This document shows, piece after piece, positions 4,502-22,652 of a DNA stretch of 24,000 nt. This DNA is from Laceyella sacchari (GTDB lineage: Bacteria > Bacillota > Bacilli > Thermoactinomycetales > Thermoactinomycetaceae), in NCBI RefSeq assembly GCF_004343255.1, contig NZ_SMDD01000003.1, positions 373,038-397,037 on the forward strand. The letters run 5' to 3'. How positions within the stretch are numbered: position 1 is the stretch's first letter; each line of letters begins with the position of its first letter. The position numbers were made by a program, and so were the translations under genes. The notes under the pieces are model-generated. The model was given only the letters and a program-made list of their open reading frames with translations. It did not search any database and had not been told where the DNA came from.

Positions 4502-4587
4502 CGGATTTCTCCTTCCTTTCACTTTGGCGCAGGGGGCGTCACTTTTGGCAACCCCTTATACGCGTGATGCATCCTAATATGCTTAGT

Positions 4588-8757: not shown

Positions 8758-8871
8758 TCCCGTTCATTTCCCTCCTGCGTGCATAGCAAGACTGCATTGC
8801 TTAATTATAACAATCTGCCCCCCGCTCTTCAATGCATTTCCTGTTCACCTACCAGTTAACCATAAACGGGC

Positions 8872-8897
8872 AAAAAAAATAAGGCTGTCACTCAGCC
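8872..8897 (-). terminator. Weak candidate terminator after the yqxA-like ORF
   Basis: The minus strand reads GGCTG-agtga-CAGCC followed by TTATTTTTTTT. The stem is only 5 bp and overlaps the stop codon. Confidence 0.3.
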
Positions 8898-9238
8898 CAA
8901 CGAAACATCCACGCAGCCAATTCGCGTGTAAATTGCCTGATCCCCGCGCCTACTTCATTGCCCATGGCCGCCATAAGATTGGTGCCCTGCCGCACCTGCG
9001 CAACGACTTTCTCCTGAGTGGCCACCGATGCGGGGTGTTCGGTCTCTACTGTTTGCCCCAAAACAGCGATTTCAATCCGTCCCTGCGCTGTTGGGGTAAT
9101 CTGTATCGCACGCGGCGCTCCCTCCGTCCCTTGCATCGCCTGCATATTTTTTTCCGCATGGCTAATGCCGATACCGATGCCAACCATAAGCATGATGATG
9201 AGACAACAACATTGCAGCATGACGCGCACTTCACTCAC
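8888..9238 (-). CDS. yqxA: Small membrane-anchored protein, YqxA-like (DUF3679-type) by position
   Basis: ~110-aa ORF with one N-terminal hydrophobic segment (CCCLIIMLMVGIGIGI). It lies between spoIIP and lepA, exactly where yqxA sits in B. subtilis. The start is ambiguous: GTG at 9238, GTG at 9229 with a GAGGTG SD, or ATG at 9220. The assignment rests mainly on synteny. Confidence 0.5.
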   Translation of the reverse strand: MSEVRVMLQCCCLIIMLMVGIGIGISHAEKNMQAMQGTEGAPRAIQITPTAQGRIEIAVLGQTVETEHPASVATQEKVVAQVRQGTNLMAAMGNEVGAGIRQFTRELAAWMFRWAE

Positions 9239-9239
9239 C

Positions 9240-10382
9240 TCACCGCCCGTTCGAGACAGGTTTGGCCTTGCCGATTCGTTCCGCGATGACGCGGGCCAAC
9301 ACCTCTACCGAACGGTTCGCTTCTTCAAACGTATTATCCACCCCCCCAACCTCAACGAGCAGGCTGTTGGGTGACAACGATTGGTTATACTCTCCGTTGT
9401 TCCCTTTTTCGCGCTTTTTAATAATCACCGTGCTGCAAATTCCGGGAACCACCTCGTTCAGCCGTTTGTACAACTCGCGCGCCAGCCGCAGATTTTCTTC
9501 ATAGTTCTTGCTTTCCCTGCCCACCACAAAAGCGAGCCGGGCATAAGCTTTCCCATTCACCACTTTGGTCGTTTTGGGGCGCCGTTGGGCATCACGATGT
9601 AAGTCAATCAAATAAGTGACATCCTCATGTTGCGCCATGGCTTCCTTCACCATTTTTCGCGATTGAACATACGCACCGGAATTCCATGTGTATTTTCGAT
9701 TGACAGTTACCGCCCCTACGCCCATCCTCTCCAGTTGGTTGGCCATATGCTTGGATACAGTGGTAATATTTTTGCGTACGTCCGAAGCCAAGCGGGGATC
9801 TTTCTTTCCTAACTCCGGAAGATAAGACTCCCAAAAATGCGTATTGTAAATCAACACTTGTTTATTTTTGATCGAACCGGTGGGACGTTCATTCACATCT
9901 TCATCAGGGTCTTCCATCGCTTTGATGATCTCTTGCTCCAATTCCGGAGGCGGCGGGGATTCAATCGGAATCGAGGTGTAATCAAAATCGCTGCTCGCCA
10001 CATCGATTTCACTGTCAAACAAGTCATACATGGGAAGCTCCTTTCCCAAATACGTGCGCGGGTCTCTCAGATCAATGCTAGTAGCTAATTCCAAAGCCAT
10101 TCGAGACGCGATCTCTTCCATTCCGGCTTCCTGCATCTTTTCTTGCAGATACGGGATATTTTCACTCATCGCCATCAACAGCGTTTTGGACGAGATATGG
10201 GAGGTGATGCGGCTAAATTCTGCAGAAGCCAATCGGCTTTTGGCTTGTCCCATGGCAAGCGCTCCCGCCAAAGCGAAAGTAAAGGCGACAGCCAAACAGA
10301 GCAGGACGAACGTCTGCCTCGTCCTGGGTTGCGACATGTTGACGGTGATAAAGCTGTGATACCGTTTTTTCACCAGGTCCAC
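9240..10382 (-). CDS. spoIIP: Stage II sporulation protein P (SpoIIP, engulfment amidase/endopeptidase)
   Basis: 380-aa ORF with an N-terminal TM segment (FVLLCLAVAFTFALAGALAMG). The C-terminal domain has motifs I recall for SpoIIP: VLIYNTHFWESY, YLIDLHRD, LLVEVGGVDNTFEEA. It lies downstream of gpr as in B. subtilis. Confidence 0.85.
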   Translation of the reverse strand: MDLVKKRYHSFITVNMSQPRTRQTFVLLCLAVAFTFALAGALAMGQAKSRLASAEFSRITSHISSKTLLMAMSENIPYLQEKMQEAGMEEIASRMALELATSIDLRDPRTYLGKELPMYDLFDSEIDVASSDFDYTSIPIESPPPPELEQEIIKAMEDPDEDVNERPTGSIKNKQVLIYNTHFWESYLPELGKKDPRLASDVRKNITTVSKHMANQLERMGVGAVTVNRKYTWNSGAYVQSRKMVKEAMAQHEDVTYLIDLHRDAQRRPKTTKVVNGKAYARLAFVVGRESKNYEENLRLARELYKRLNEVVPGICSTVIIKKREKGNNGEYNQSLSPNSLLVEVGGVDNTFEEANRSVEVLARVIAERIGKAKPVSNGR

Positions 10383-10552
10383 CTTCTATCAATTCATCTC
10401 TTCCACAACTTATGAGAGACGAAATCGAAGTAGAACCTAGCACGCTTCATTTCAAAGGCTGATAGAAAAGAGAGCGCCATCCTTCGGCAAAAAGAAAAGG
10501 GCCATGCCGGCGCAAAACAGCCGTTCATGACCCATCTTCCACATTGCCACGC

Positions 10553-10933
10553 TCAACTCACATGCGAAGCAACGTTATCCATGGTCACCGCCCCGTGCAA
10601 GGCGCAGTTTAATCCGTTTGCCAACAGCTTGGCCATGTTACCGATGAAAGAATCCACTTCTTTTGGGGTGACGATCAGATTTTGCCCGAGCGGTGACAAC
10701 ACCTCGTGAATCAGTTGCCGCTTGTCTTCGGGATCAAGCGATCCAAACATCCCCATCATGCGCGTCTGCGTTTCCGGCGGTACTTGGTAGTTTTGCAAGT
10801 CCCGCACACTCGGCCGGTTATGCGGGTCCAGCGGATTGCCGCGCACCCCATGCATTTCCCGTCCCAAATGGGACAATACATAATCGATCGTGTCATGGGC
10901 GATGGTCACTGCATCAACTACCGTAGGAACTCC
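10553..10933 (-). CDS. gpr: Germination protease Gpr, 3' segment (about the last 121 codons plus core), detached from its 5' segment by the insertion
   Basis: The in-situ ORF is 10553..10978, but its first 13 codons (MLMPAQIHTGKIM) are element DNA. From GVPTV onward it reads [22 protein letters not shown]...[44 protein letters not shown]. This matches the Gpr C-terminus as I recall it from B. subtilis (VDAVTIASDTVDYILKHFGREM...[44 protein letters not shown]). Confidence 0.9.
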   Translation of the reverse strand, partial: [126 protein letters not shown]

Positions 10934-12689
10934 TACTGCCATTATTTTGCCGGTATGAATCTGTGCCGGCATGAGCAAACGCCGCAGCCGTTTCTCGTGC
11001 GCAACTCACCGCCTCAAAAAACTTGACCACATCAAAGTGAATCGCTACCTCTATCGTCTCCTCGCGGACCGTAACATAATCCACAATGCTCCCCAACATT
11101 TGTCTTTTTTCTTCCGTGGTGGCTTGGTCAAACAGCGCTCCCCAATCCAACAACAGATCTTGCAACTTGAGCACGTCAATCTCTGAAAGCCCATTGGCAT
11201 CTTTCAGTGCCTTCATCTCTTCATACAGCCTTTGCGCGCTTTCCAACTCTTTTACAGCTTTCTCATACAACTCCTTAAGCTGGGCTTCAGAAAAAGGGGA
11301 TTCCTCACCCATCAAAATCTTCAACAGATGGTTATTGGCGTTTTCTTTTGCCCTTTGCCATTGCTCCATGTCTTGCTTCGACTGTGCTAGCTTCTCTTCA
11401 ATCTCCTTGGAGGCGTTTAAAGTCTGTTTTTGAATCTCCACCAACACATTGGAGTTTACCATTTCCTTCAGATATTCTTTTACTTTCTCAATCACCGCAG
11501 ACTCGATCTTCTCCGCCCTGTGTGAACCTTTCTTTGCTCCGCATGCCTGAACCCCTGCTTTAAGCCTTTTCAGGCACCTGTAAATGCCATACAATTCGCC
11601 TCTTTTGGTTCTCTTATGGTCAAGCCAGTCCCTCCGGCTGCCATAAGTCATGCTGCTCCCACATTCACAAGTTAACACACCCACGAGCAGGCCTTTGCCC
11701 GTTCCTTTTCTGACGGGAGTGTTACCACCAAAATGTGACGCGACATCTACCCGGGCTTTTTTCATTTTCTGTGCTCTCTCCCACACCTCGGCAGGAACAA
11801 TCTCATACTCTGCCCAGTACCGCTCGGATACAAGCTCTTCTCCTTCTTTGGTGTACTTTTGATAGGAACCAAACTCTCCTTCTACTTTTTTGGTTTTTCC
11901 ATAGGATAAATACCCCTTGTAAATGGTGTTGCGGAGAATTTTACGAATCCCTTCTGCTTTCCACTCTCTGCCGGTTCTCGTTTTTAACCCTTTTTCGTTT
12001 AAAATACCCGCGATTTTTAACATGCCATACCCTTCAGAGGTGTAAAGCCGATATATTTCTTTCACCACTTCCGCCTCTTTGGGATTGATCTGCAACATAT
12101 TGGACATTTCAGGATGATTGATATAGCCATAGGGTGGGTTGCCCCCAGTCCAAAACCCTTCCTTGTGAATCAATTTCATCATGTCAGTAACACGCACTTT
12201 GGTGTCCATGGACGCTTTCTTGGCTGACCAAAACTCAATGAAGTTTAAAATCTCATCCGCATCTCCGTTATTGGTAAACTCCCTGTCCTTGTCCACGACC
12301 CATATGCGGCAATGCCGCAGAAACCGGATAGCATGGTTTAAACTTTCGGTAGATCGTCTGCCGATTCGGTCCAGCTTGTACACCAACAAAATGTCATACA
12401 AGCCTTTTTTGGCATCCTCAAACGCCCGATTTAAACCCGTTCTCTTGCTGACATGTGTGTGAAACCCAGACACACCCGCCTCCACATACTCCAGCCCTGT
12501 AAATATCCAATCGGGCTTATTTGCGATATATTCCATGCATTTCTCTTTTTGCAGGGGCAGATCATTCTCATCTGAAATGGGTCTGGCGGACATTTTCCCA
12601 GTCCTGGAAGCTGCTTTCTTTTTCCCCTGGCTAGTTTGCTTGTTCGTACTCGCCCTCATAAACAAAGCAACTCGTAGCTTTTCCCCCAT
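10914..12689 (-). CDS. Large serine recombinase (site-specific integrase/excisionase of the gpr element)
   Basis: 591 aa. The resolvase-type catalytic domain has VALFMRASTNKQ (candidate nucleophile Ser) and ILLVYKLDRIGRR. The recombinase domain has GGNPPYGY. A Cys-rich zinc-ribbon region reads CECGSSM...YRCLKRLKAGVQACG. A long coiled-coil follows (EEKLAQSKQDMEQWQRAKENANNHLLKIL...). An AAAGGAG SD is present. The ORF 3' end crosses the attL core and stops in host gpr DNA. Confidence 0.92.
   Translation of the reverse strand: MGEKLRVALFMRASTNKQTSQGKKKAASRTGKMSARPISDENDLPLQKEKCMEYIANKPDWIFTGLEYVEAGVSGFHTHVSKRTGLNRAFEDAKKGLYDILLVYKLDRIGRRSTESLNHAIRFLRHCRIWVVDKDREFTNNGDADEILNFIEFWSAKKASMDTKVRVTDMMKLIHKEGFWTGGNPPYGYINHPEMSNMLQINPKEAEVVKEIYRLYTSEGYGMLKIAGILNEKGLKTRTGREWKAEGIRKILRNTIYKGYLSYGKTKKVEGEFGSYQKYTKEGEELVSERYWAEYEIVPAEVWERAQKMKKARVDVASHFGGNTPVRKGTGKGLLVGVLTCECGSSMTYGSRRDWLDHKRTKRGELYGIYRCLKRLKAGVQACGAKKGSHRAEKIESAVIEKVKEYLKEMVNSNVLVEIQKQTLNASKEIEEKLAQSKQDMEQWQRAKENANNHLLKILMGEESPFSEAQLKELYEKAVKELESAQRLYEEMKALKDANGLSEIDVLKLQDLLLDWGALFDQATTEEKRQMLGSIVDYVTVREETIEVAIHFDVVKFFEAVSCARETAAAFAHAGTDSYRQNNGSRSSYGS
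10926..10933. repeat. attL core octamer GGAACTCC (left junction of the insertion)
   Basis: This is the exact point where Gpr-coding sequence gives way to unrelated DNA. An identical octamer sits at the right junction (21814..21821). The crossover dinucleotide cannot be resolved within the 8 bp. Confidence 0.75.
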
Positions 12690-12783
12690 TCTGTCTATCT
12701 CCTTTTCTATCCTACTGTCATATTATTGCTGGTATTATACATCGATTGAGAACACGGGCGCAAACAAAGAAAAAAGGAGAGAT

Positions 12784-12948
12784 TTAATCTTCTCCCCTTT
12801 CCAGCTGATTTTTCGCCTTCTGGCTGTAATACCTGGAAGCGACCTGGATAAAAACTTTTTGGAAATCATCCACCCTGCGCTCAATCTCAACAGATGACAA
12901 CTTGTTCTTTGCATGGACTATTCTAATGTTGTAATCAGTCATGGTCAT
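12784..12948 (-). CDS. 54-aa hypothetical protein upstream of the recombinase (candidate recombination directionality factor or regulator)
   Basis: Below the ORF-track size cutoff and found by hand translation: MTMTDYNIRIVHAKNKLSSVEIERRVDDFQKVFIQVASRYYSQKAKNQLERGED. A GGAAAGGG SD lies about 6 nt upstream of the ATG at 12948. It is on the same strand as the recombinase and ends 94 nt upstream of the recombinase start. I recognise no family. Confidence 0.4.
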   Translation of the reverse strand: MTMTDYNIRIVHAKNKLSSVEIERRVDDFQKVFIQVASRYYSQKAKNQLERGED

Positions 12949-13041
12949 GTCAGCCCTTTCCACTTCTGATCAACATTATTTCCTATCCAGACGATAGCCA
13001 TTCCATAGGGCTGATAGACATGAGAAGCAAAGCAGAAAACG

Positions 13042-13069
13042 ATTATGAAGCTACTGGCCTATTTATCAA
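13042..13069 (-). promoter_or_regulatory. Candidate sigmaA-type promoter for the small ORF and recombinase unit
   Basis: The minus strand has TTGATA (complement of 13064..13069), a 16-nt spacer, then CATAAT (complement of 13042..13047). It lies about 95 nt upstream of the 54-aa ORF. A second perfect TATAAT lies between the small ORF and the recombinase (minus strand, about 12730). No convincing sporulation-sigma consensus was seen by eye. Confidence 0.3.
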
Positions 13070-13075
13070 CGCTCC

Positions 13076-13092
13076 AGTAAAATCTAATGGAT
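13076..13092 (+). repeat. Direct repeat copy A: AGTAAAATCTAATGGAT
   Basis: 17/17 identity with 15247..15263. Similarity continues imperfectly (ATTTAT upstream, then CTGGAGGC and ATTTA downstream) in both copies. Copy A overlaps the 3' end of the 105-aa minus-strand ORF. Confidence 0.85.
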
Positions 13093-13100
13093 TATTATAT

Positions 13101-13418
13101 CTACTCACTGGAGGCTGCACCATTTAAGAAATCCTCATGCCTCTGCTTTTGAAGCGTGTACAGTAGTTCCATCCTTTGTTCATACTCTCCATGAACATCT
13201 ACTCTGAAGACATCTTCGATTCTTCTTATGATATAACCATCATTTGTGCCCTCAGGAGTTACATGTTTCATAACAAACTGCTCATCGGAGATCGCATCTA
13301 TAAATCCAGCAGAGAAATTTCCCGGCTGATTCCGATCGGAATAAACAGAAACAATCATCCCTTTATAAAGCGAACGCTTTAAAGCTTCAAGTATACGGCT
13401 TTCTCCCATTTGTCTCAT
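13101..13418 (-). CDS. Hypothetical soluble protein, about 102-105 aa (possible small beta-barrel or immunity-type protein)
   Basis: ORF MRQMGESRILEALKRSLYKGMIVSVYSDRNQPGNFSAGFIDAISDEQFVMKHVTPEGTNDGYIIRRIEDVFRVDV... The likely start is the ATG at 13409, with AAGGGG 9 nt upstream. It has no hydrophobic segments. Its last codons lie in the CTGGAGGC part of repeat copy A, so the 3' end may be recombinant or truncated. Confidence 0.55.
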   Translation of the reverse strand: MRQMGESRILEALKRSLYKGMIVSVYSDRNQPGNFSAGFIDAISDEQFVMKHVTPEGTNDGYIIRRIEDVFRVDVHGEYEQRMELLYTLQKQRHEDFLNGAASSE

Positions 13419-13641
13419 CCCCTTGTTTAGTGTTAATAAACAAATGAATGATTTTTTTCAATCTAGATACACCTACTATTTCGCAAATAATAACCATGGA
13501 ACTTAACAAAATTCCTCCCACAAATAAAAATAAATAAAGCATAGCAATAGCATAACGATGTTCGGAGATCGTTTTCATCATGTCCATAAACATATCAACT
13601 AACATCGATGTAAAAATCGGAATCTCTAAACAAAGTCGCAT
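13387..13641 (-). CDS. Hypothetical small membrane protein (84 aa)
   Basis: An open frame in about 25-30% G+C DNA, where stop codons are frequent by chance. It has a hydrophobic core (AIAMLYLFLFVGGILLSSMVIICEIVGV) and overlaps both neighbours. No clear SD is present, so it may be a fragment. Confidence 0.35.
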   Translation of the reverse strand: MRLCLEIPIFTSMLVDMFMDMMKTISEHRYAIAMLYLFLFVGGILLSSMVIICEIVGVSRLKKIIHLFINTKQGDETNGRKPYT

Positions 13642-13882
13642 AAACGAGCTCTTGCGTTAATATAATGACCACAATTGCAAGTGCTACTTCCAACATGGTA
13701 TTCTCTTCTCCTCTTTCATCCATTTCATGCAGGATAAATTCTTCCTCCACACCTAACAAATCGGGCTTAAGCCCTTGATCACCTTTATTTACGTCTATAG
13801 GGAATATCCCGCTCTTCATTCCCCTTCCTATAATGAAAAGGAATATACTCAAAGAGCATATCCCTTTTTGCATGAGCATCAA
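13595..13882 (-). CDS. Hypothetical small membrane protein (about 94 aa)
   Basis: It has two hydrophobic segments (ICSLSIFLFIIG; LEVALAIVVIILTQ) separated by an acidic loop. The ATG at 13879 overlaps the upstream stop as TGATG, a translational-coupling pattern. No SD is present. An alternative internal start (MKSGIF) is preceded by GGAAGGGGA. Confidence 0.35.
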   Translation of the reverse strand: MMLMQKGICSLSIFLFIIGRGMKSGIFPIDVNKGDQGLKPDLLGVEEEFILHEMDERGEENTMLEVALAIVVIILTQELVYATLFRDSDFYIDVS

Positions 13883-14163
13883 TATGAAATAGGCATATAT
13901 TTATACGCCAAAACACTAAGCACACAGTCGAATATAAAAAAACCTAAAAACAACTTTTTGTTCCTCGATAAATAATCCTTTTTATTCTGTGAAAATAAAA
14001 ATTTAACCAGATACGGTACCCATGGAACAACCCAAACAAACCCTACTTGTAATAACGACTTTAGCTCATCATGAACATAATCCGTTAAAATAAATAATAA
14101 TCCTGCTACTAGCACACATCCTATTGCACTTACATTTACTTCTATTTTTTCTTTTCTACTCAT
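13879..14163 (-). CDS. Hypothetical small membrane protein (94 aa)
   Basis: A GGGAG SD lies 9 nt upstream of the ATG at 14163. There are three hydrophobic segments (AIGCVLVAGLLFIL; VGFVWVVPWVPYLVKFLF; LFLGFFIFDCVLSVLAY). It overlaps the upstream ORF by 8 nt (ATGAGTAG). Confidence 0.5.
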   Translation of the reverse strand: MSRKEKIEVNVSAIGCVLVAGLLFILTDYVHDELKSLLQVGFVWVVPWVPYLVKFLFSQNKKDYLSRNKKLFLGFFIFDCVLSVLAYKYMPISY

Positions 14164-14401
14164 TTTCTTTTTCTCCCTTAGTCGTTGACTCCAAATACTC
14201 TGCAGTTAAAAATACGAAAATAATTATATAAATAAAACATAAAGGATAATAATCTACAAACCTTCTATAGATCGTCCCTTTTAGTTTAACGTTTACCTTC
14301 CACTTATGTTCAAGCCAAACAATATTTATCCCATTAATCAAGCATAAAAGTAACGCATATTCGATACTATTAAAATATATACACAACAAAACAAATGACA
14401 T
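14156..14401 (-). CDS. Hypothetical small membrane protein (81 aa)
   Basis: It has hydrophobic segments (FVLLCIYF...ALLLCLINGINIV; YYPLCFIYIIIFVFLTA) and an acidic tail. No recognisable SD is present. It is retained because a long open frame in very AT-rich DNA is unlikely by chance. Confidence 0.4.
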   Translation of the reverse strand: MSFVLLCIYFNSIEYALLLCLINGINIVWLEHKWKVNVKLKGTIYRRFVDYYPLCFIYIIIFVFLTAEYLESTTKGEKENE

Positions 14402-14500
14402 GAAAATATAATTAATAAAAAAGAAACAGAATTACCTTTCGGTAGTTATCATTAAACTTCTCTTTCAGTTCATTGATCATCGTCTTAAATCCCCTTTGTT

Positions 14501-14538
14501 TAATAAGGTGGCAAGTACTGTACCATACCACCTTATTA
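14501..14538. repeat. Perfect 11-bp inverted repeat TAATAAGGTGG-N16-CCACCTTATTA
   Basis: Arms are at 14501..14511 and 14528..14538. It lies in the 217-nt gap between the TPR gene and the small-membrane-protein ORFs. No flanking T-run is present on either strand, so it is not a canonical terminator. Confidence 0.8.
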
Positions 14539-14618
14539 AAAGGCATTCAATTTTACTTTGACGCCCGATGGAGCTGCACAATCATGGGACGTTCAACAAG
14601 ACACCCATTACACATTTT

Positions 14619-15188
14619 TCATCCTTGGCCTTCAAATAACTGCGGATATTTCTTTCTCAGTCTTTGATATCTTCGTTTAGATAAAGAATGTCTCATACAA
14701 TATTGATAAACCTCATTTGCTTTGTCATTCATCCCTTTTTGCAAATATGCCTTGATAACTTTGATAAATTGATCTTTCACCTTTATCCCTTCCGCCTGAA
14801 TCAAAATAGGATAGGCTTTATCAAAATAACCGATGGCCTGATCTATTTCCCCCTTATCATAATAAAGCCTTCCTATATTGTAATTTAATACTGCCCGCTC
14901 CAACTCATGTACATCCCGTTGCAAACCCGCCTGCAATATTTGAATGGCTAATTTCTTATTTCGAAGAAGAAACTCATAATTATGGGATCGTTCTAAGATA
15001 TCATTGAAAGTACGAATTTTTTTGAAAAAACATCGATAAATAAGCCAAGTAATTATTAAAACACCGATAAATAAACGGATCCAGTCCAATGATATAACCT
15101 CCATTGCCGGCAAAACAAGCGGGTAGATTGAAGGAAAAAAATGAGACAGGCATAAATCCTTAAAATGCACCTTTATTTTATAATTCAA
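14619..15188 (-). CDS. Membrane-anchored TPR-repeat protein
   Basis: The maximal ORF has a TTG start at 15188 with no SD. A better start is the TTG at 15089, preceded by GGAGG (complement of 15098..15102) with 8-nt spacing, giving about 156 aa. The protein then begins DWIRLFIGVLIITWLIYRCFF (a TM anchor). TPR-like helices follow (AVLNYNIGRLYYDKGEIDQAIGYFDKAYPI...KVIKAYLQKGMNDKANEVYQYC) and the tail is basic. Confidence 0.65.
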   Translation of the reverse strand: MNYKIKVHFKDLCLSHFFPSIYPLVLPAMEVISLDWIRLFIGVLIITWLIYRCFFKKIRTFNDILERSHNYEFLLRNKKLAIQILQAGLQRDVHELERAVLNYNIGRLYYDKGEIDQAIGYFDKAYPILIQAEGIKVKDQFIKVIKAYLQKGMNDKANEVYQYCMRHSLSKRRYQRLRKKYPQLFEGQG

Positions 15189-15246
15189 TTTACTAAATTA
15201 ACAAGAATAGTATATTCCGATTTTGTTGCAGAATTTATTTTATATT

Positions 15247-15263
15247 AGTAAAATCTAATGGAT
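15247..15263 (+). repeat. Direct repeat copy B: AGTAAAATCTAATGGAT
   Basis: Identical to 13076..13092. Here it overlaps a plausible promoter (TTGCAG 15226..15231, 17-nt spacer, TAAAAT 15249..15254). It is followed by the CTGGAGGC SD of the 108-aa gene. Confidence 0.85.
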
Positions 15264-15299
15264 AATGATTAAGCACCTAATAGCTGGAGGCAATTTACA

Positions 15300-15626
15300 A
15301 TGAAAGATGTGTGTTTCTGTGATGAAACCTTTGAAATACTTGTTGAAGCAGAAGTATCTGCTGATCCGATTTGGTGTAATAAATGTAAAGCAAACTTAGA
15401 TCTTGATGAACTTCCAATATCAGAAGAACTAAAAGCAGAACTATATGAATGGAACAGTACTTTTAGTAACCATCTAGCATCTCATAATTACAACGGAATA
15501 ACACAATCTTTTTCAGAATGGTTAAATGCAAGTGGTGAAAACTTAACAAAAAAATTAAGCGCAGAACTAACTAACACATATGTAATCCAATATCATCCTT
15601 ACGAATCAATTATTAAAGAAAAATAG
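15300..15626 (+). CDS. Hypothetical 108-aa protein with N-terminal CxC...CxxC (zinc-ribbon-like) motif; candidate immunity protein
   Basis: ATG start with a GGAGG SD (15286..15290) at 9-nt spacing. Cysteines lie at residues 5, 7, 26 and 29 (DVCFCDETF...PIWCNKCKANL), followed by a helical acidic region. It is the only plus-strand gene in the element and converges on the 3' end of the RHS toxin gene. Confidence 0.7.
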   Translation: MKDVCFCDETFEILVEAEVSADPIWCNKCKANLDLDELPISEELKAELYEWNSTFSNHLASHNYNGITQSFSEWLNASGENLTKKLSAELTNTYVIQYHPYESIIKEK

Positions 15627-15688
15627 AAAAACTAATCACATTAACATATCCACACAATCTAGTGTTTTTTACCTGTAGCTTAGCACGA

Positions 15689-15725
15689 TAAAAAAATCCC
15701 CTTGATCGTTAATACGTTCAAGGGG
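15689..15725 (-). terminator. Rho-independent terminator immediately after the RHS toxin gene (hairpin shared with the convergent gene)
   Basis: The minus strand reads CCCCTTGA-12 nt loop-TCAAGGGG (8-bp perfect stem, 15698..15705 / 15718..15725) followed by ATTTTTTT. It starts 27 nt after the RHS stop codon. Confidence 0.7.
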
Positions 15726-15751
15726 TCATTTCTAGATAGGCAGAAGCTACA

Positions 15752-18700
15752 TTATTTCCAACGGCTTTTGGGTTTAGGTTGACGGTAACAAGTTGTTAAC
15801 GTACTCCCTTTTCTACAAACCGCTATACCCTTACGCCAATAAACAATCGATTTTTCTTTTGGATCATAATATTTCTTTCCGTATTTTACAGTATTAGCAA
15901 TTTCTCTTGGACCAATCTTCCTTTGATATGCTCTTTGACCCAAATGCTTGGAAACACGCAGCGATACCCCTAACCATCGTAAAATCTGAGTTGCCGCCCG
16001 AATAATCCATGGAATAAGGGGATTCTTTCCGTTTGAATCGACCAAATTGATTGGATTATTATAGGCGTAAGTATATTTATTCAGACTAAACGGATCATTT
16101 TCCGTCCCCTCAAATGTATCCCTCGTCAAAAATCTTCCCGTCTCTGGATTATAGTACCTGCTTTGCAAGTAATACAATCCCGTTTCCTTGTCATACCGAT
16201 AACCGGCATAGGTATAGGGATTTTCAACCGTACCCGTTTGGTTGGCGAGGGTACCAAATGCATCATAGGTATAAGTGTTTACAACAGCACCTGTTTGATC
16301 CGTGAGTGCTACCACATCCCCATGCCCGTTCAACTGATAGAAATACGTCTTTCCACCACGGGACATGCTAACAGGTTCATTCTCTGGACCATAGGTGTAG
16401 CTCGCTACAATCGCTCCACTTTGATCTGTTTCATACGCCACATTGTTGTTTTGATCATAATGGAACGTAATGGTACCCGATGCCGTCGTTTTCGTCCTCC
16501 GCATGCCATCCGCACGGTAGGTGAACGAAGCGATCGTATTACCTGCGCTGTCTTTGACTGCGGTCAATCGGTTCTCCGCGTCATAGACATACGTCTTGTT
16601 GCCATCGCTTAGCAAATTGCCGATAGCGTCGTAGGTATAGGTTGTGCCGTTGACGGAAGTAAGCTGATCTGCATCATCATAAGCATAAGTGGTAGTCGTC
16701 GCCGTTCCGTTTGGGGACGTTACTTTTTTGGTCAGACGATTACCCACAGCATCATAGGTGTATTCATAAGTCGTGCCATCTGGACGAGTTTCTTTGGTCA
16801 ATTGATCCAGTTCATCGTACACATACGAGGTCGTGCCCGCTTTGGACGTGACCGATGTAATATTTCCTTTGTTATCGTAAGTATAGGTAAAGCTGTCAAT
16901 CTGGTTTCCGTTTTTGTCAAAAATGTCACGTGCTATCAAATCTCCCGCACCATTATACCGGTTGAAGGTCATGTTGCCGTCAGCCGTTTTACGGCGAGCC
17001 ACTTGGTCTTGCTCGTTATAGTTGAACCATGCTTGGTTGGTACCATTGGATGTGATTTTGGTTAGTTGATTGTTCCCATTATACCCATAGCCTTGTGTAA
17101 TCTCTGTAGATCCAGCGGACAGCTTTTGTTGGGTGATGTTTCCATTGGCATCATAGGTATAATCCGTTAGATTGCCATTTGGCTCTTTCACTTGTTTCAG
17201 GCGGTTGTCAGCATCATAAGCATAATCAGTCGAAATGCCGCTAGCCACATCGGTTTCATTAGTGACGTTGTTGTTGGCATCATAGTTAAAAGTGTATGTT
17301 TGCGTACCATTGTAGGAAATAGCATCTTTTCGGTTGACACTGTCGTAGCTGTACGAAACAATGTTACCGTTCGGATAAGTGATCTTGGTTTGATTTCCAT
17401 TCAGATCGTAGTCATACGTTGTCGTTTTGTTATTAGCGTCGGTAACACTTTTTATTTGATTTAATTCGTTGTAGGTATAGGTCGTTTCCTTGTTTTTGGC
17501 GTTGATGACCTTGGTTTTGTTGCCCGCCGCATCGTATTGGTATTCGGTGGTGTGATTTTTCGCATCAGTCACCTTGGTCAGGCGATCCAGCGCATCGTAA
17601 GTGAACTGCGTCGTGTCCAATCCAACCTTTTCACTGGTCGTGTTGCCAACCGTATCATAAGTGCGTTGTGTGACCCGTTGCTCAGGATCGGTAGTTGACG
17701 TTTCATAGTTGTTGTTGCTGTCATAGCCATGGTAGGTGGTAATGGCATCTGGTACCACTTTGGCGGTATCAAACCAAGCTGTTCCCGTTTGATTGCTGTA
17801 CTCATAGTACACCCTGATTCGATCGAAGGATTTGGTCGTTTTTATCTCGCTGGCAATATGTTGCCAATCGTGAGACTTTGAGCGATCAAAGTTAAATGTA
17901 AACTTCTCCACTACATCAGTTCCCACACTGGAATCATAGGTATTGATAATGTATCCGTAAATGCCATTTGGGTTCGGATTTTCCGTTTTGGAAAAGCCGG
18001 ATACAGTTAAGATCGAACCCGCTCCACCCTTTAAGTTGACATCTTGGTACACCGTTTTGTATTTTGCCGAATCCCCAACCAGCTTCACTGAACGTGCACC
18101 ACTATATGTTTCTGTGGTATCTAGGCCGTCCCCTGCCGCTGTGTCTCCTTGCAAATACCAGCGATCTGGAATATTGTCGCCAGCGGGATCGAGATCCCGT
18201 TCAAAGTCGCTGTTTTCCAATACGTTATAGGCACCGTAATGCCCTTCTTCGATTTGCAAGCCATCAAACCAGTACGTTCCACCATATTGACCATTGATTC
18301 CGCTGATATACCCGCGTATTTGCAACTGGTCATATCCTGTCAATGTTCCCGGATCGAGAGACAAGTGGATACGGGTTGCTTCTTGCGTACCTGTAATGCC
18401 GGCACCCGCGATAGCTGTGGACGCTCCAGTTTTAGAGTTGAACGCAAACGCATAGATGCTACCTCGTCCCTGGGCACCACTCGTTTTTACATATCCACTC
18501 AGTACATAGGTTTTATTGGGATCATAAGCAACTTTATCACTGGCAATGGCCGTAGCCCCAGAGACATTGGAAATTTTGATGCTTTTATTCCCCAAAGTGA
18601 TACCATCAGTTGTAAGGCCCGTGCTATCCCAAGAGATATCAACTGATCCACTCGGCACTTTGCTCCAATTGTCCGGCCAATTATCACTGTTGCGATCCAA

Positions 18701-21382
18701 TTCAAAACTTCCATTGATAGCCAAATTGTTGCCTGGGCTCATCGCCGATGTTTCGGACAAGACGTTGCCATAGGCATTGTATTTGGTCGCAGTTGATTTT
18801 TCGACTGGGTCAGTGGAAGCCGTCAAATTATTTTTGTCATCATATTCATTGGTTGTGGTGTTACCGTTGGCATCCGTTTCCGTCACCGGATTGTTCTTGC
18901 TGTCATAAGTGGTGCTGCTCGTGTTGTTGAGCGGCGTACTAATGCTGGTTAGATTTCCTTTCTCATCATACGAATAATTGTAAGTGGCCGTGCCGTTGGC
19001 GGCGTTGGCGTTTCCGTCTTTTTGGCTGATCAATTGGTTTTTGTCGTCATATTCAAACGTGTTCTTAATATTGAATCCAGTCGGATCTTCCGTCGATTGG
19101 ATCACGTTTCCATACGCGTTATGAGTATAAATCGTTTTCGTTCCTTTTGGATCAGTGACAGTGGTGGTGTTGTTGACTGCATCATAACTAAATGTTGTTT
19201 TCGCCGTTTGTTTCGCACCATTCACTGTGATGGGATAAGAAACAGCATTCACCCGGTCACTGTCCGTATCATAACTGATTGTTTTCGTATGATTGTTTGG
19301 ATCGGTGATCGATATCAAATTGTGGTTATCATCATAGCCATATGCCTCTGTTGACACCACCGAACCTGTTGCATCCTTGTGTGTGATGCCAGTCAAATTG
19401 CCGTTCGCGTCATAGGTGTACTCCACTGAGCGGTTCGCTGGATCAGTCACTTTGCTGACTCGGTTGTTGGTATCATAAGCCAGTGTGATTTGTCTACCTG
19501 ACGCATCAGTAATGGATGTGGGCAGGTTATCGGTATAAGCGATCGTTGTCGTGTTATTGTTACTATCAACAATCGAGGCCAACTTTTTGGCTGAGTTAAA
19601 ATTGTATTTTGTCTGATCCGATGTGATCAGGGTAAAGGTACCGTTACTGTTTTTCACTAATTCCAAGTTGACTCCATCAGGCGCTTTATACGTACCCGTT
19701 GATACTCCGCCCGATCCATATTCCGGTATAAACGTATGTGTGGTGCCATCGGCATCAGTATAAGCGACAGGACCATCGGAATCCATGGATAGACTTTGTT
19801 CTAGATTGGAAATCCAACCATAGCCAAAAATACCACTTTTGTTTGAACGGCTGTTATAAGCTCGTTCCACTGACAAACTTGGACCGCGACCATTGATACT
19901 GACATCCGTATCTTGCAAATAATAGTTACCGTTATAAGTATTCACATTAGAGGCAGCCGTCGTCCAGAAACTTTCTACACCTATCGGATCAATGGTATAA
20001 GTAATGGTCAGCTTGGGCTTTTGCGAGTTGTTTGGATCAGGGTCGAGATAGTCACTGGAACGGAATCCTTTTCGGTTATTGCTTTCCGAATTCAGGCGTA
20101 ACATCACACCATAGTTGGAGCTGGTGCCTGCATACCATTGTTTTGTTAGTGAAGTGATATCAAAATCATAAGCTCCCACAGCTCCAACCGATTTCGTGGA
20201 GATAGGTGTTGTACCAGATGACGGTTGGTTGCTTCCCTTGATATCAGTTGAGTTCCAATCCGAGGTGACTGGATAAACATTGACTTGCTCTGCATGAGTG
20301 GTTGCGTATTGATGCAATGTAAGCGTCGCTGAAGAAATATTAGCCCCACTCAATAATGGAGATAATGCGAACTTGAGATACGAACGATATTCTCCCGTAC
20401 CATAAGTCGGATCAGTATAGGTTCCTGTGAGCAAATATGAAGAAGTGCCAAAGTTAACATTTTTACCATTAGTGGAATTTGTGACTGTGGCATCGTATGT
20501 CTTAAGTGCACCTTGCACCGAAACAGATGGATCGATCACTACTGGATATGCCCGCTTTTCATCCTTTAACCAAGCGGTATCCACTTTCAAATCTATAAAT
20601 GTTTGGTTTTTCTCCTTACGCAATTCATACCGGGCACCAAAGGACTGTTCGTCATTGGCATCCACCATGAAAGGTCGAGGAATGGCGAACACCGTGTTAC
20701 CCTTGTTGTCCAAAAATGAAAGGGAACCGTCTTTCTCTTGTTTGACATCCACATTTTTCGTTTTTAAAGATAATGTATAAGTAGACTGTCCAGTATATTT
20801 TTGCAACACCCAGGCTTCTTTAAAACCTGTATTGGTGACATAATAGCTCAGATCCGTATATGGATAAACCGAGGGATATGTCACTTTGTTCTTATCTTTT
20901 TTCGCAGCTACATTGGCACCATCAACCAACCCGAAATCGATGTGGGCTTGTCCCAATTGCAAACGAACAACTTTCTTGCCCCGGCTACGTGGAGCAAACC
21001 CCACTTGAAATTGGTTTCCTCCATTTGCGAGGGAAAGTTCAGCATCATCTGCGGCGGCCGCTTTTTTGAATTTGACTTCTTTTATCTCTTTTATCTCGTT
21101 ATCAATTTCTACCCATTTATCTCCCTTTTTATAGTGAATAGGTTCCAAATATTCTTCCAAAGTATATGTCTTTTTGTCTGGAGATATATAAGTTTTGGAA
21201 GTGGCAGTCCGCATGTGTTCCAATTCAACTGGCTTGGGTGCGGGAGCAGCCAATACATCAAATGTTGCTTGTGGCCAGAGAGTGAAGATCAATGTCAATG
21301 CAATGGTAATCGATACAATGCTACGAATTCGCGCGTATCGTTCAGCATAAAAAAATTGCAAACATATCCCTTCTTTCTTCAC
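15752..21382 (-). CDS. Secreted RHS/YD-repeat polymorphic toxin (WapA-like), 1876 aa
   Basis: The track start is a GTG at 21382 with no SD. The likelier start is the TTG at 21361, preceded by GAAGGG. A signal peptide is present (RYARIRSIVSITIALTLIFTLWPQATFDVLA/AP). Dozens of YD repeats occur (YTYDANGNLT, YAYDADNRL, YTYDAVGNRL, and others). The RHS core end reads YAGYRYDKETGLYYLQSRYYNPETGRFLTRDTF...NKYTYAYNNPINLVDSNG. A short variable C-terminal domain follows. Confidence 0.95.
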   Translation of the reverse strand: MKKEGICLQFFYAERYARIRSIVSITIALTLIFTLWPQATFDVLAAPAPKPVELEHMRTATSKTYISPDKKTYTLEEYLEPIHYKKGDKWVEIDNEIKEIKEVKFKKAAAADDAELSLANGGNQFQVGFAPRSRGKKVVRLQLGQAHIDFGLVDGANVAAKKDKNKVTYPSVYPYTDLSYYVTNTGFKEAWVLQKYTGQSTYTLSLKTKNVDVKQEKDGSLSFLDNKGNTVFAIPRPFMVDANDEQSFGARYELRKEKNQTFIDLKVDTAWLKDEKRAYPVVIDPSVSVQGALKTYDATVTNSTNGKNVNFGTSSYLLTGTYTDPTYGTGEYRSYLKFALSPLLSGANISSATLTLHQYATTHAEQVNVYPVTSDWNSTDIKGSNQPSSGTTPISTKSVGAVGAYDFDITSLTKQWYAGTSSNYGVMLRLNSESNNRKGFRSSDYLDPDPNNSQKPKLTITYTIDPIGVESFWTTAASNVNTYNGNYYLQDTDVSINGRGPSLSVERAYNSRSNKSGIFGYGWISNLEQSLSMDSDGPVAYTDADGTTHTFIPEYGSGGVSTGTYKAPDGVNLELVKNSNGTFTLITSDQTKYNFNSAKKLASIVDSNNNTTTIAYTDNLPTSITDASGRQITLAYDTNNRVSKVTDPANRSVEYTYDANGNLTGITHKDATGSVVSTEAYGYDDNHNLISITDPNNHTKTISYDTDSDRVNAVSYPITVNGAKQTAKTTFSYDAVNNTTTVTDPKGTKTIYTHNAYGNVIQSTEDPTGFNIKNTFEYDDKNQLISQKDGNANAANGTATYNYSYDEKGNLTSISTPLNNTSSTTYDSKNNPVTETDANGNTTTNEYDDKNNLTASTDPVEKSTATKYNAYGNVLSETSAMSPGNNLAINGSFELDRNSDNWPDNWSKVPSGSVDISWDSTGLTTDGITLGNKSIKISNVSGATAIASDKVAYDPNKTYVLSGYVKTSGAQGRGSIYAFAFNSKTGASTAIAGAGITGTQEATRIHLSLDPGTLTGYDQLQIRGYISGINGQYGGTYWFDGLQIEEGHYGAYNVLENSDFERDLDPAGDNIPDRWYLQGDTAAGDGLDTTETYSGARSVKLVGDSAKYKTVYQDVNLKGGAGSILTVSGFSKTENPNPNGIYGYIINTYDSSVGTDVVEKFTFNFDRSKSHDWQHIASEIKTTKSFDRIRVYYEYSNQTGTAWFDTAKVVPDAITTYHGYDSNNNYETSTTDPEQRVTQRTYDTVGNTTSEKVGLDTTQFTYDALDRLTKVTDAKNHTTEYQYDAAGNKTKVINAKNKETTYTYNELNQIKSVTDANNKTTTYDYDLNGNQTKITYPNGNIVSYSYDSVNRKDAISYNGTQTYTFNYDANNNVTNETDVASGISTDYAYDADNRLKQVKEPNGNLTDYTYDANGNITQQKLSAGSTEITQGYGYNGNNQLTKITSNGTNQAWFNYNEQDQVARRKTADGNMTFNRYNGAGDLIARDIFDKNGNQIDSFTYTYDNKGNITSVTSKAGTTSYVYDELDQLTKETRPDGTTYEYTYDAVGNRLTKKVTSPNGTATTTTYAYDDADQLTSVNGTTYTYDAIGNLLSDGNKTYVYDAENRLTAVKDSAGNTIASFTYRADGMRRTKTTASGTITFHYDQNNNVAYETDQSGAIVASYTYGPENEPVSMSRGGKTYFYQLNGHGDVVALTDQTGAVVNTYTYDAFGTLANQTGTVENPYTYAGYRYDKETGLYYLQSRYYNPETGRFLTRDTFEGTENDPFSLNKYTYAYNNPINLVDSNGKNPLIPWIIRAATQILRWLGVSLRVSKHLGQRAYQRKIGPREIANTVKYGKKYYDPKEKSIVYWRKGIAVCRKGSTLTTCYRQPKPKSRWK
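15755..16018 (-). other. C-terminal toxin tip of the RHS protein (88 aa), DUF4258 / RelE-ParE-superfamily-like putative RNase
   Basis: The sequence after the RHS core boundary (…NPINLVDSNGKNP) is LIPWIIRAATQILRWLGVSLRVSKHLGQRAYQRKIGPREIANTVKYGKKYYDPKEKSIVYWRKGIAVCRKGSTLTTCYRQPKPKSRWK. The H-x3-R-x3-R-x-I signature (HLGQRAYQRKI), followed by a short beta-rich segment ending ...TTCY, matches my recollection of the DUF4258 toxin fold. This is unverified. Confidence 0.5.
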
Positions 21383-21496
21383 ATGCTAGTTGTTTCGTGA
21401 CACAAAATAGTCACAACCACAATATATAATTTAATAAGTTATAAATAATAAATCAATTATTTTTATCTATCTTTTAATTTATTTTTTTATAAACAG

Positions 21497-21524
21497 ATTA
21501 TATATTTTATCCTATTTTAAGCAA
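21497..21524 (-). promoter_or_regulatory. Candidate sigmaA promoter of the RHS toxin gene
   Basis: The minus strand has TTGCTT (complement of 21519..21524), a 16-nt spacer, then TATAAT (complement of 21497..21502). It lies in a very AT-rich leader, and many alternative hexamers exist there. Confidence 0.25.
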
Positions 21525-21563
21525 TTTATACTCTATTATGTAAAAGTACCATCAAAACGATTT

Positions 21564-21596
21564 GAAAAAATAAAGCCCGGCACCTCCTTGCCAGGC
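21564..21596 (-). terminator. Rho-independent terminator just inside the right end of the element (would stop read-through from the gpr promoter)
   Basis: The minus strand reads GCCTGGCA-aggagg-TGCCGGGC (8-bp stem, 1 mismatch; 21575..21582 / 21589..21596) followed by TTTATTTTTTC. Confidence 0.55.
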
Positions 21597-21638
21597 CCAT
21601 AATCAATAAAAGACTTATCAGTTTTAAGTTTTTCATCT

Positions 21639-21647
21639 TGATATAAT
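21639..21647 (+). promoter_or_regulatory. Outward-facing extended -10 element (TGaTATAAT) near the right end of the element
   Basis: The plus strand has a cTTGATATAATg match to TGnTATAAT, about 170 nt from attR and pointing out of the element, antisense to the gpr 5' segment. No good -35 is present. Confidence 0.3.
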
Positions 21648-21813
21648 GCATTTATATGATGTCAAAGTAAACTGTCACTAGTTTTTAAAATCCCTCTGAC
21701 TGAACAACTCAACCAACTTTTATTAACACCTGTTTTTTGATGGGAACAGGAAACGTCCTAGCAATCCTTTTGAATAAATGGATCGTTTCCATACCAGCAA
21801 TATTATAACTGTC

Positions 21814-21821
21814 GGAACTCC
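21814..21821. repeat. attR core octamer GGAACTCC (right junction of the insertion)
   Basis: Identical to 10926..10933. On the minus strand the gpr reading frame runs ...GCG ATT GGA GTT CC| and then diverges into element sequence. Confidence 0.75.
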
Positions 21822-22547
21822 AATCGCAATCACCGGTACACCCAGTGTTTCTTTGGTGAGTGCTTTGCGCTTGTTGCCCACCCCTGAGCCAGGATGTATA
21901 CCGGTGTCAGCTACTTGGATGGTGGTGTTCACGCGGCTGAGCGCTCTTGACGCCAATGAATCAAAGGCGATGACGAAGTCCGGTTTCGTCTTTTCCACCA
22001 CGCCGCGCACGATCTCGCTCGTCTCGATCCCCGTGATGCCCAGCACGCCCGGCGAGAGTGCGCTGATCGGCCGATACCCTTCAGCGACAGATTCTGGCGC
22101 CAGCTCAAACAGGTGGCGGGTGACGAGGGTGTGTTTGACCACAAGCGGCCCGAGGGCATCAGCCGTGACATTCCAGTTGCCGAGGCCGACGATCAGGCCG
22201 GAGTCGTCAAGGCCAATGCCAACCTCATCCAAAAAACGGCTGAATTGCTGGGCAAAGTGTTCACTTACGCGCTTTTCCAGCATGGAATCTCTGCTTCTCA
22301 GTGCCGGCACTTCCAACGTCAGATAAGTGCCAGGCACTTTGCCGATCGCTTCACTGCCCGCTTGGTCATCGATCCAGATCCAGCTGGTGGTGATGCCTTC
22401 TTCGGTGTTCTCTTCAATCCGTACGCCGGGGATGTCGCTTGTGCCCCCCCGCTCATCTACCGCCATCTGATGCGCTTCCCGTGCAAGGTCTGTGCGGATG
22501 GAGTAGCCAGACAAATCGATTTGGTGTTCAGTGCGCTCTGCGTTCAT
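21814..22547 (-). CDS. gpr: Germination protease Gpr, 5' segment (about the first 247 codons); in situ the frame runs on into the element to a stop at 21723
   Basis: The track ORF is 21723..22604. The likely true start is the ATG at 22547, preceded by GGGGAGGAAG. Gpr motifs present: [126 protein letters not shown]. After these come 27 unrelated element-encoded codons ([27 protein letters not shown]). Confidence 0.9.
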
Positions 22548-22623: not shown

Positions 22624-22652
22624 TAGTTTGCTTTTTGTTGATTTATTTATTC
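22624..22652 (-). promoter_or_regulatory. Candidate forespore (sigmaG/sigmaF-type) promoter of gpr
   Basis: The minus strand has GAATAA (complement of 22647..22652), a 16-nt spacer, then CAAACTA (complement of 22624..22630). Compare the sigmaG consensus as I recall it (GnATAa, 17-18 nt, CATnnTA). The match is imperfect and the spacer is one short. Confidence 0.25.

Follow-up and report, generated by a model that had tools for sequence, protein, structure and literature searches.

Organization of the split gpr locus

The window analysed here, a 24-kb stretch of the Laceyella sacchari genome, carries the host genes trpS, rpsT, gpr, spoIIP, lepA, hemW, hrcA, grpE and dnaK on the minus strand in the usual Bacilli order. 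The gpr gene, which encodes the spore protease GPR, is interrupted after codon 248, at the GVPTV codons, by an element of ~10.9 kb. The element carries a large serine recombinase (LSR) gene, a small open reading frame (ORF) of 54 aa and cargo genes (Table 1). A first-pass annotation of this DNA had placed the limits of the interruption at 10926 and 21821. These positions proved to be the exact outer edges of an 8-bp core, GGAGTTCC, that is common to both junctions. The end of host sequence was set by aligning the junctions with gpr of L. putida, Lihuaxuella and Thermoactinomyces, in which the gene is whole.

Table 1. Features of the split gpr locus (positions are those of the window)
Feature	Position	Strand	Description
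gpr 5' part	22547..21804	-	Codons 1-248, ends ...AIGVPTV; Pfam PF03418 Peptidase_A25 positions 2-229/353, E 8.5e-100; TIGR01441 GPR agrees
gpr 3' part	10932..10553	-	120 codons from GVPTVVDAV... to stop; PF03418 positions 220-351/353, E 3.4e-43; TIGR01441 agrees
attL	21789..21846	-	gpr-side arm; core GGAGTTCC 21821..21814 (central GT 21818..21817); element-side P' arm 21816..21789
attR	10901..10958	-	Element-side P arm 10958..10931; core GGAGTTCC 10933..10926 (central GT 10930..10929); gpr-side arm
LSR	12689..10914	-	591 aa in the integrated form; Resolvase PF00239, Recombinase PF07508, Zn_ribbon_recom PF13408; PHROG 95 integrase, E 1.6e-80
Detached LSR 3' end	21709..21816	-	In frame with the LSR only after circularisation
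LSR promoter box and half-site O	TATAAT 12739..12734; O 12737..12710	-	O overlaps the box; found as an inverted repeat
54-aa ORF	12948..12784	-	Candidate recombination directionality factor; phage L104 and every related island have a homolog, placed upstream of the LSR
Terminator-like hairpin	12771..12802	-	Between the 54-aa ORF and the LSR; from sequence
sigmaF-type promoter candidate	13003..12974	-	GAATG-N15-GGAAATAATG, 25 nt upstream of the 54-aa ORF
gpr promoter candidate, forespore type	22624..22652	-	GAATA-N17-CAAACTA; sigmaF/G assignment presumptive
RHS/YD-repeat polymorphic toxin	15752..21382	-	1876 aa; PF05593 RHS_repeat, E 3.5e-95; DUF6531; TEN_YD-shell
Low-G+C cargo	13101..15626	mixed	Small membrane ORFs; TPR protein 14619..15188 (-); 108-aa ORF 15300..15626 (+); 105-aa ORF 13101..13418 (-)

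Each gpr fragment alone encodes a partial A25 domain. The 5' ORF continues past the core through 25 foreign codons to a stop at 21723. When the two halves were joined in silico at the core, they gave an uninterrupted, in-frame GPR of 368 aa, and the full-length A25 domain with both Asp motifs appears only in this joined form. Residues 7-366 of the joined protein align to residues 2-369 of B. megaterium GPR (1C8B) with an E value of 3.8e-114. The junction is free of gaps and falls inside a hydrophobic stretch of GPR. Both Asp motifs (TADALGP and AFDSLA) lie within the N-terminal part, as the first-pass annotation had noted. It had also pointed out that a second intact gpr would make the disruption irrelevant; among the best matches no second gpr of at least 59% identity was found. 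The gene is uninterrupted in L. putida and 10 other Thermoactinomycetaceae.

The element-side arms P and P' form imperfect inverted repeats around the central GT (22/30 positions match), and the gpr-side arms are partly symmetric too. On sequence grounds this is the layout expected for an LSR attP of ~54 bp.

The recombinase gene is altered by integration

The LSR is identical to L. sacchari WP_054095967.1. The catalytic residues S14 and R12, the DR..RR motif and four Cys are invariant across its homologs, and a structure model has long helices at residues 391-497. The integrated ORF reads through the P arm, so that its last 7 codons and the stop lie in gpr DNA. In an in-silico circle the LSR ORF instead crosses the core into 21816..21709, with a net gain of 31 residues, to give a protein of 622 aa. 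The detached segment is intact at attL in five lineages, including Laceyella, Paenactinomyces, Shimazuella and a clostridial bin, and it evolves as protein-coding sequence (omega, the ratio of nonsynonymous to synonymous rates, is 0-0.17 by Nei-Gojobori counts). Because this segment is in frame on the circle only, and yet is conserved as protein, its coding capacity argues that circularisation belongs to the life of the element.

Database LSR homologs fall into forms with and without the tail. Twenty of 77 stop shortly after a frame-shifted read-out of gpr codons and are thus integrated copies. In at least 23 others the protein continues into a homologous long tail, which has the motif K-K-[IL]-x-[KR]-x-F. 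The other 34 fit neither strict pattern, though ~8 of them look by eye like variant long tails. The long-form LSRs examined sit on gpr-free contigs, namely two phage contigs (L090 and L104) and a small-element contig (L092). The att core in L090 and L092 is still gpr-like, GTAGGAGT(A/T)CC. The tail is modelled as short helices with low-to-modest confidence (pLDDT 37-68). An ssrA-like degradation tag on the tail was considered and rejected, as it is not conserved. A 69-nt stretch just past the tail stop (21639-21707) is missing in L. tengchongensis (L012). On one further contig (P0005) spoIIP and an LSR of the long-tail, attP type are divergently oriented and 419 nt apart, a space too small for a whole gpr.

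Both halves of gpr are under selection

Substitutions were counted by the Nei-Gojobori method between the three element-bearing Laceyella lineages. The 5' part of gpr (gpr-N) shows 23 synonymous and 5 nonsynonymous changes between the window and L012 (omega 0.066), and 18 and 1 between the window and a second Laceyella strain, L087 (omega 0.017). The 3' part (gpr-C) shows 19 and 1 in the latter comparison (omega 0.014). These values are as low as those obtained against the intact L. putida gpr (0.03-0.06), and the departure from neutrality has a binomial P of ~5e-20. The LSR has a synonymous divergence (dS) of 0.119 and an omega of 0.054, and the host genes lepA, spoIIP and hemW have dS of 0.12, 0.13 and 0.15, which fits co-descent of element and host. 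All named NCBI records of the L. sacchari/sediminis/tengchongensis clade in two clusters (~8 LSR records) carry the element.

By these counts gpr is still under strong purifying selection in both halves, as is the LSR. Since the element has in addition diverged at the pace of its host, plain inactivation of gpr, one of the scenarios put forward in the first-pass annotation, is disfavoured. The same annotation had suggested that a truncated N-terminal product might work on its own. That idea also loses ground, because gpr-C is as constrained as gpr-N.

Selection on both halves would likewise be seen if they were expressed separately and assembled into an active enzyme, with the DNA left as it is. 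In Thermoactinomycetaceae elements there are in-frame ATG codons in the P arm just before GVPTV, and gene callers predict C-terminal ORFs of 85-141 aa. These ATG codons are not preceded by a ribosome-binding site, however, and two related loci (L084 and L085) have no conserved start. The cut lies within the hydrophobic stretch noted above, and a split protease gives no reason why LSR, att arms and detached LSR tail should be conserved. We consider this explanation very improbable.

Three metagenome proteins (P0257, P0259 and P0256) are intact across the junction and 98-99.2% identical to the reconstituted GPR. Their genes are located on short contigs. Judged by these sequences, an empty site is present within the L. 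sacchari clade. The alleles may have arisen by excision or may belong to strains that lack the element. In the first-pass annotation a fixed, immobile element was named as a finding that would count against its interpretation; the existence of intact alleles indicates that the element is not immobile.

Candidate forespore-type promoters and a small partner ORF

The pattern GAATA-N17/18-CAAAnTA is kept upstream of gpr in 10 related genera. The gene belongs to the sigmaF regulon of C. difficile, as does its ortholog in B. subtilis (PMC3789822). The target of the element is a sigmaF-regulon gene with a forespore-type promoter candidate, unlike the mother-cell genes interrupted by the known sporulation intervening elements. 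Where the searchable literature deals with skin, SPbeta, vfbin, vrin, gin and yin, it names mother-cell genes only and never mentions gpr. The first-pass description of an LSR intervening element in a forespore gene, unlike the described mother-cell cases, is thus borne out.

The 54-aa ORF has homologs adjoining the LSR gene in most elements (in L092 one gene intervenes). They form a family of 42 clusters, all annotated as hypothetical, and many are found on the same contigs as LSR homologs. Since they lie upstream of the LSR and share contigs with it, the 54-aa ORF looks like a dedicated LSR partner and is the obvious candidate for a directionality factor. The protein is modelled as an extended N-terminus followed by one long helix.

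The first-pass annotation had found no convincing sporulation sigma consensus upstream of this ORF by eye. A sigmaF-type candidate does exist there (Table 1). The pattern GHATR-N15-GGNRANANTR has this site as its sole match in the window, with 0.12 matches expected by chance. In L012 and L087 the differences are confined to the spacer. Paenactinomyces (L081) keeps both boxes (GAATG ... GGAAATAATA) with 11 of the 15 spacer bases changed. Shimazuella (L082) and L092 have G[AC]ATA-N15-AAAGAYAATA. On phage L104 the sigmaF-type motif is absent upstream of the 54-aa ORF homolog. A sigmaE/sigmaK pattern found no match near the LSR module, including upstream of the LSR and of the 54-aa ORF.

The last result bears on the possibility that excision is specific to the mother cell, as for skin and SPbeta, and irrelevant to gpr function. 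This is the rule for all characterised intervening elements (PMC4191935). Against it, no sigmaE/sigmaK motif lies upstream of the LSR or its partner, GPR acts in the spore core and gpr is transcribed in the forespore (PMC3789822), and a copy rebuilt in the mother cell could not account for selection on the split gene. Mother-cell excision therefore seems scarcely credible here.

The LSR promoter box is overlapped by a third att-arm-like half-site, which we call O. It matches both P and P' at 22 of 28 bases. In each of the eight elements examined, its distance to the LSR ATG is 18-22 nt. When the window was scanned with a position weight matrix trained on the P and P' arms only, the three best scores were P' (30.6 bits), P (28.9) and O (25.0). 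The next score, 14.6, was attR reversed, and other background did not exceed 12.6. O is likely an autoregulatory operator of the LSR, to judge from its place at the promoter. Covariation of O with the arms of its own element is weak. The idea that O marks a second element boundary was rejected, as it is a half-site only.

A constitutive-looking TATAAT promoter with an autoregulatory half-site would also suit excision that is stochastic or takes place before septation. A low integrated/excised equilibrium would then leave part of the spores GPR-positive, and mixed outgrowth speeds would amount to bet-hedging. For yin of C. botulinum, subpopulations with the element integrated and with it excised occur side by side (PMC10747680), and the intact alleles on short metagenome contigs could be read in the same way. 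This explanation does not sit well with the 54-aa ORF, which is followed by a terminator of its own and preceded by a promoter of forespore type, not by a clear sigmaA promoter. Nor does the protein collection searched contain an assembled attP form of the Laceyella LSR. We regard stochastic excision as improbable, though less so than the split protease or mother-cell excision.

An element family that targets gpr

In tblastn searches, each of the seven LSR homologs whose chromosomal surroundings are available (38-99% identity) borders on gpr fragments, at the same codons in every case, and at all seven loci both gpr halves are free of stops and frameshifts. The same element is found in the Laceyella strains L087 and L088 (LSR 99%) and L012 (in which the available stretch is without the LSR). 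Further members are in Paenactinomyces guangxiensis (L081, LSR 82%, gpr-N segment inverted), Shimazuella kribbensis (L082, 77%), metagenome contigs L083/L084 (60-61%, AAA_14/DUF4143 cargo), a bin named Defluviitaleaceae (L085/L086, 60-61%, SIR2/HerA cargo), an Oscillospiraceae bin (L089, 59%, with an extra gene between the LSR and gpr-C) and a prophage of Paenibacillus chitinolyticus (L091, 38%, in the opposite orientation). The family also occurs in free attP form on the phage contigs L090 and L104 and the small element L092. In IMG/VR one LSR relative was found (59% identity); INPHARED phages gave none that is close (27% identity at most). Of 80 gpr loci, 79 have the target codons G(I/V)PVIAIG(V/I)PTVVDAV, and this near invariance would explain the broad host range of the family.

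Two loci deserve a separate remark. In L089 (487-3854) the LSR and gpr-C are separated by a DUF4143 AAA gene, and the arm at the junction is unlike the LSR-side arm; L089 may be a tandem or nested element. In L091 (10001-12347) a full prophage occupies the same gpr codons in reverse, its LSR is convergent with gpr-N, and the LSR start should lie ~110 nt further upstream than called.

The composition of the family brings up the alternative of an ordinary island or prophage remnant. Here gpr would be knocked out for as long as the element is in place, the cost (slower breakdown of the small, acid-soluble proteins of the spore and slower outgrowth) would be tolerated or offset by the cargo, and excision would serve horizontal transfer only. 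The GVPTV codons would simply be an invariant, quasi-palindromic target. Real temperate phages and prophages are in the family (L090, L091 and L104), the attB codons are nearly universal as given above, and the cargo is toxin- or defence-like. With intact alleles in the clade, each lineage may have borne a split gpr only briefly, and gpr mutants are viable. On the other side stand the omega of 0.01-0.07 on both gpr halves in three element-bearing lineages, the equal dS of element and host, and the presence of the element in all the named clade records of the two clusters. In addition, neither gpr half has a frameshift or stop at seven independent loci, the sigmaF-type promoter is conserved on the islands and absent on the phage, and GPR is universal in spore formers (bioRxiv 10.1101/2022.02.25.481979). 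For the Laceyella element we consider this explanation the main rival but on balance unlikely. The first-pass annotation had listed an ordinary island among its scenarios. That scenario is in part true for the wider family, which includes real temperate phages.

Inversion variant in Paenactinomyces

In L081 (7387-12149) the rpsT and gpr-N segment is inverted relative to gpr-C. Both att sites are intact and share the same central GT, the LSR tail segment is intact, and the sites are in inverted orientation, so the LSR should flip 4.2 kb (7537..11766) instead of excising it. We predict that such a flip would rebuild both gpr and the long LSR. As no DNA would be released, the switch could not be lost. 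Scanning the inversion breakpoints with the weight matrix revealed no additional att-like sites.

Cargo and neighbouring genes

The G+C content of the cargo is 32-40%, compared with ~50% in the flanks. Its largest gene encodes the RHS toxin, whose L087 copy (L087:1125-6869, 1914 aa) is ~94% identical over residues 1-1809, while the C-terminal tip is unalignable. The alignment indicates that the toxin tip has been swapped between strains inside the element. No immunity gene for the toxin was identified. The small cargo ORFs have no Pfam, PHROGs or PADLOC match. The whole is perhaps best described as a reduced, phage-derived integrative island whose module of LSR and 54-aa partner is specialised on the invariant GVPTV codons.

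Directly downstream of gpr-C lies spoIIP (9240-10382). In C. difficile gpr and spoIIP form one sigmaF operon (PMC3789822). Given this arrangement and the adjacency here, the insertion may also separate spoIIP from forespore transcription. Further along, a gene for a Cpn60/TCP-1 (thermosome-like) chaperonin (2963-4522) is located between hrcA and grpE in the dnaK operon; it is also present in L081 and L087. Archaeal-like chaperonins have been reported in some Firmicutes.

Proposed mechanism

The locus, as read from its DNA, has complete LSR att sites, and their recombination would give an in-frame gpr together with an LSR of 622 aa. O is found at TATAAT, and the 54-aa gene is a separate unit. 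Our best reading of this arrangement, held with slightly less than even confidence, is that excision is timed to the forespore by a small protein, that gpr is expressed once rebuilt, and that the full-length LSR then puts the element back. In the early forespore sigmaF would drive expression of the 54-aa protein, which would act as the directionality factor. Together with the truncated 591-aa LSR it would excise the element and so rebuild gpr. The rebuilt gene would be transcribed from its own forespore promoter, and the GPR zymogen would be packed into the spore. The excised circle would stay undiluted, because the forespore does not divide. The circle would encode the full-length 622-aa LSR, and once the partner protein is gone, in late sporulation or outgrowth, this form would reintegrate the circle into gpr and the element would stay in the lineage. 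The half-site O at the LSR promoter would allow the LSR to regulate itself. We infer the timing, the role of the 54-aa protein and the reintegration.

A more far-reaching version, which we put forward with greater reserve, is a germline rearrangement controlled by sigmaF. A non-replicating circle would wait in the spore and reintegrate at outgrowth, the switch of direction would reside in the LSR itself (591 versus 622 aa), and the Paenactinomyces locus would be an inversion switch that cannot be lost.

Several points weigh against forespore excision followed by reintegration. We know of no precedent for it, and B. subtilis gpr mutants are viable. The intact metagenome alleles might stem from element-free strains. 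The selection signal may then reflect recent or repeated acquisition, and if strains are often element-free it is weaker evidence. The 622-aa attP form of the Laceyella LSR is not present in the protein collection searched. The 54-aa ORF has no Pfam, PHROGs or PADLOC match and no homology to known directionality factors. The sigmaF/sigmaG consensus strings used for promoter matching are presumptive, with a general statement in PMC3789822 behind them. The DNA of the sigmaF-type candidate would also pass for a weak sigmaA promoter (TGGAAT/TTGAAT-N18-AATAAT), and there is a sigmaA-like site 40 nt further upstream, with a -10 box that L087 has lost.

That a conserved family of elements sits in a forespore gene under selection implies either that loss of a universal spore protease is tolerated or that a reversible, programmed rearrangement takes place in the inherited cell line. 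The latter, if true, would be a new kind of developmental switch, and it is open to direct test in a thermophile that can be cultured. The family is also a source of LSRs that have a defined attB of high conservation, a small partner of their own and a C-terminus that changes with integration. These traits are of interest where the directionality of serine integrases is to be understood or engineered.

Comparison with known systems

Hin/Gin inversion switches resemble the Paenactinomyces locus in its inverted att sites; the difference is that the LSR is not a small invertase, and no enhancer/Fis system is apparent here. SSV1-type integrases have attP inside the tyrosine integrase gene, which is altered by integration. 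A similar arrangement is found in the integration-dependent immunity of mycobacteriophage BPs and its relatives, in which attP lies inside a phage gene (the repressor) and integration removes its 3' end (PMC9262239). There the truncated gene is the repressor, whereas here the serine integrase loses a conserved 31-aa tail, and no ssrA-like tag is evident. XisF of the Anabaena fdxN element is likewise an LSR acting in development, and the LSR of the window has a weak NCBIfam match to it. Unlike the scheme proposed above, XisF acts in a terminally differentiated cell.

The closest parallels are the sporulation intervening elements. Those described excise only in the mother cell, which dies, and so the problem of inheritance is avoided (PMC4191935). 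In skin of B. subtilis and C. difficile (SpoIVCA/Skr; CD1231/CD1234) an LSR element splits the sporulation gene sigK, whose ORF is made whole again when the element excises precisely. When this happens is set by a small directionality factor, itself under a sporulation sigma factor (PMC5025042, PMC4191935), a part for which the 54-aa ORF is the candidate here. The target of skin is a mother-cell gene and that of the present element a forespore gene, so excision here would occur in the inherited chromosome. In addition, the skin LSR is distantly related, and here the LSR ORF spans attP. SPbeta in spsM (SprA/SprB) has a constitutive integrase with a separately regulated small factor, a module common to active phages and defective islands (PMC5499854, PMC6957869). 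SPbeta excises in the mother cell only, and the spore genome keeps the prophage (PMC4191935), a route that could not supply GPR here. The gin element in gerE of B. cereus (GirC/GirX) is, like the present element, an island with non-phage cargo, a serine recombinase with a small helper and a short, conserved coding target (PMC5595907). It differs in that gerE is a mother-cell gene and gin has three recombinases, while the gpr element family spans Bacilli and Clostridia. The searchable literature contains no mention of gpr as an integration target. The gpr-targeting family is previously undescribed, and its forespore target, its constant use of one site and a recombinase gene that is remodelled by the reaction of its product are new with respect to the known intervening elements.

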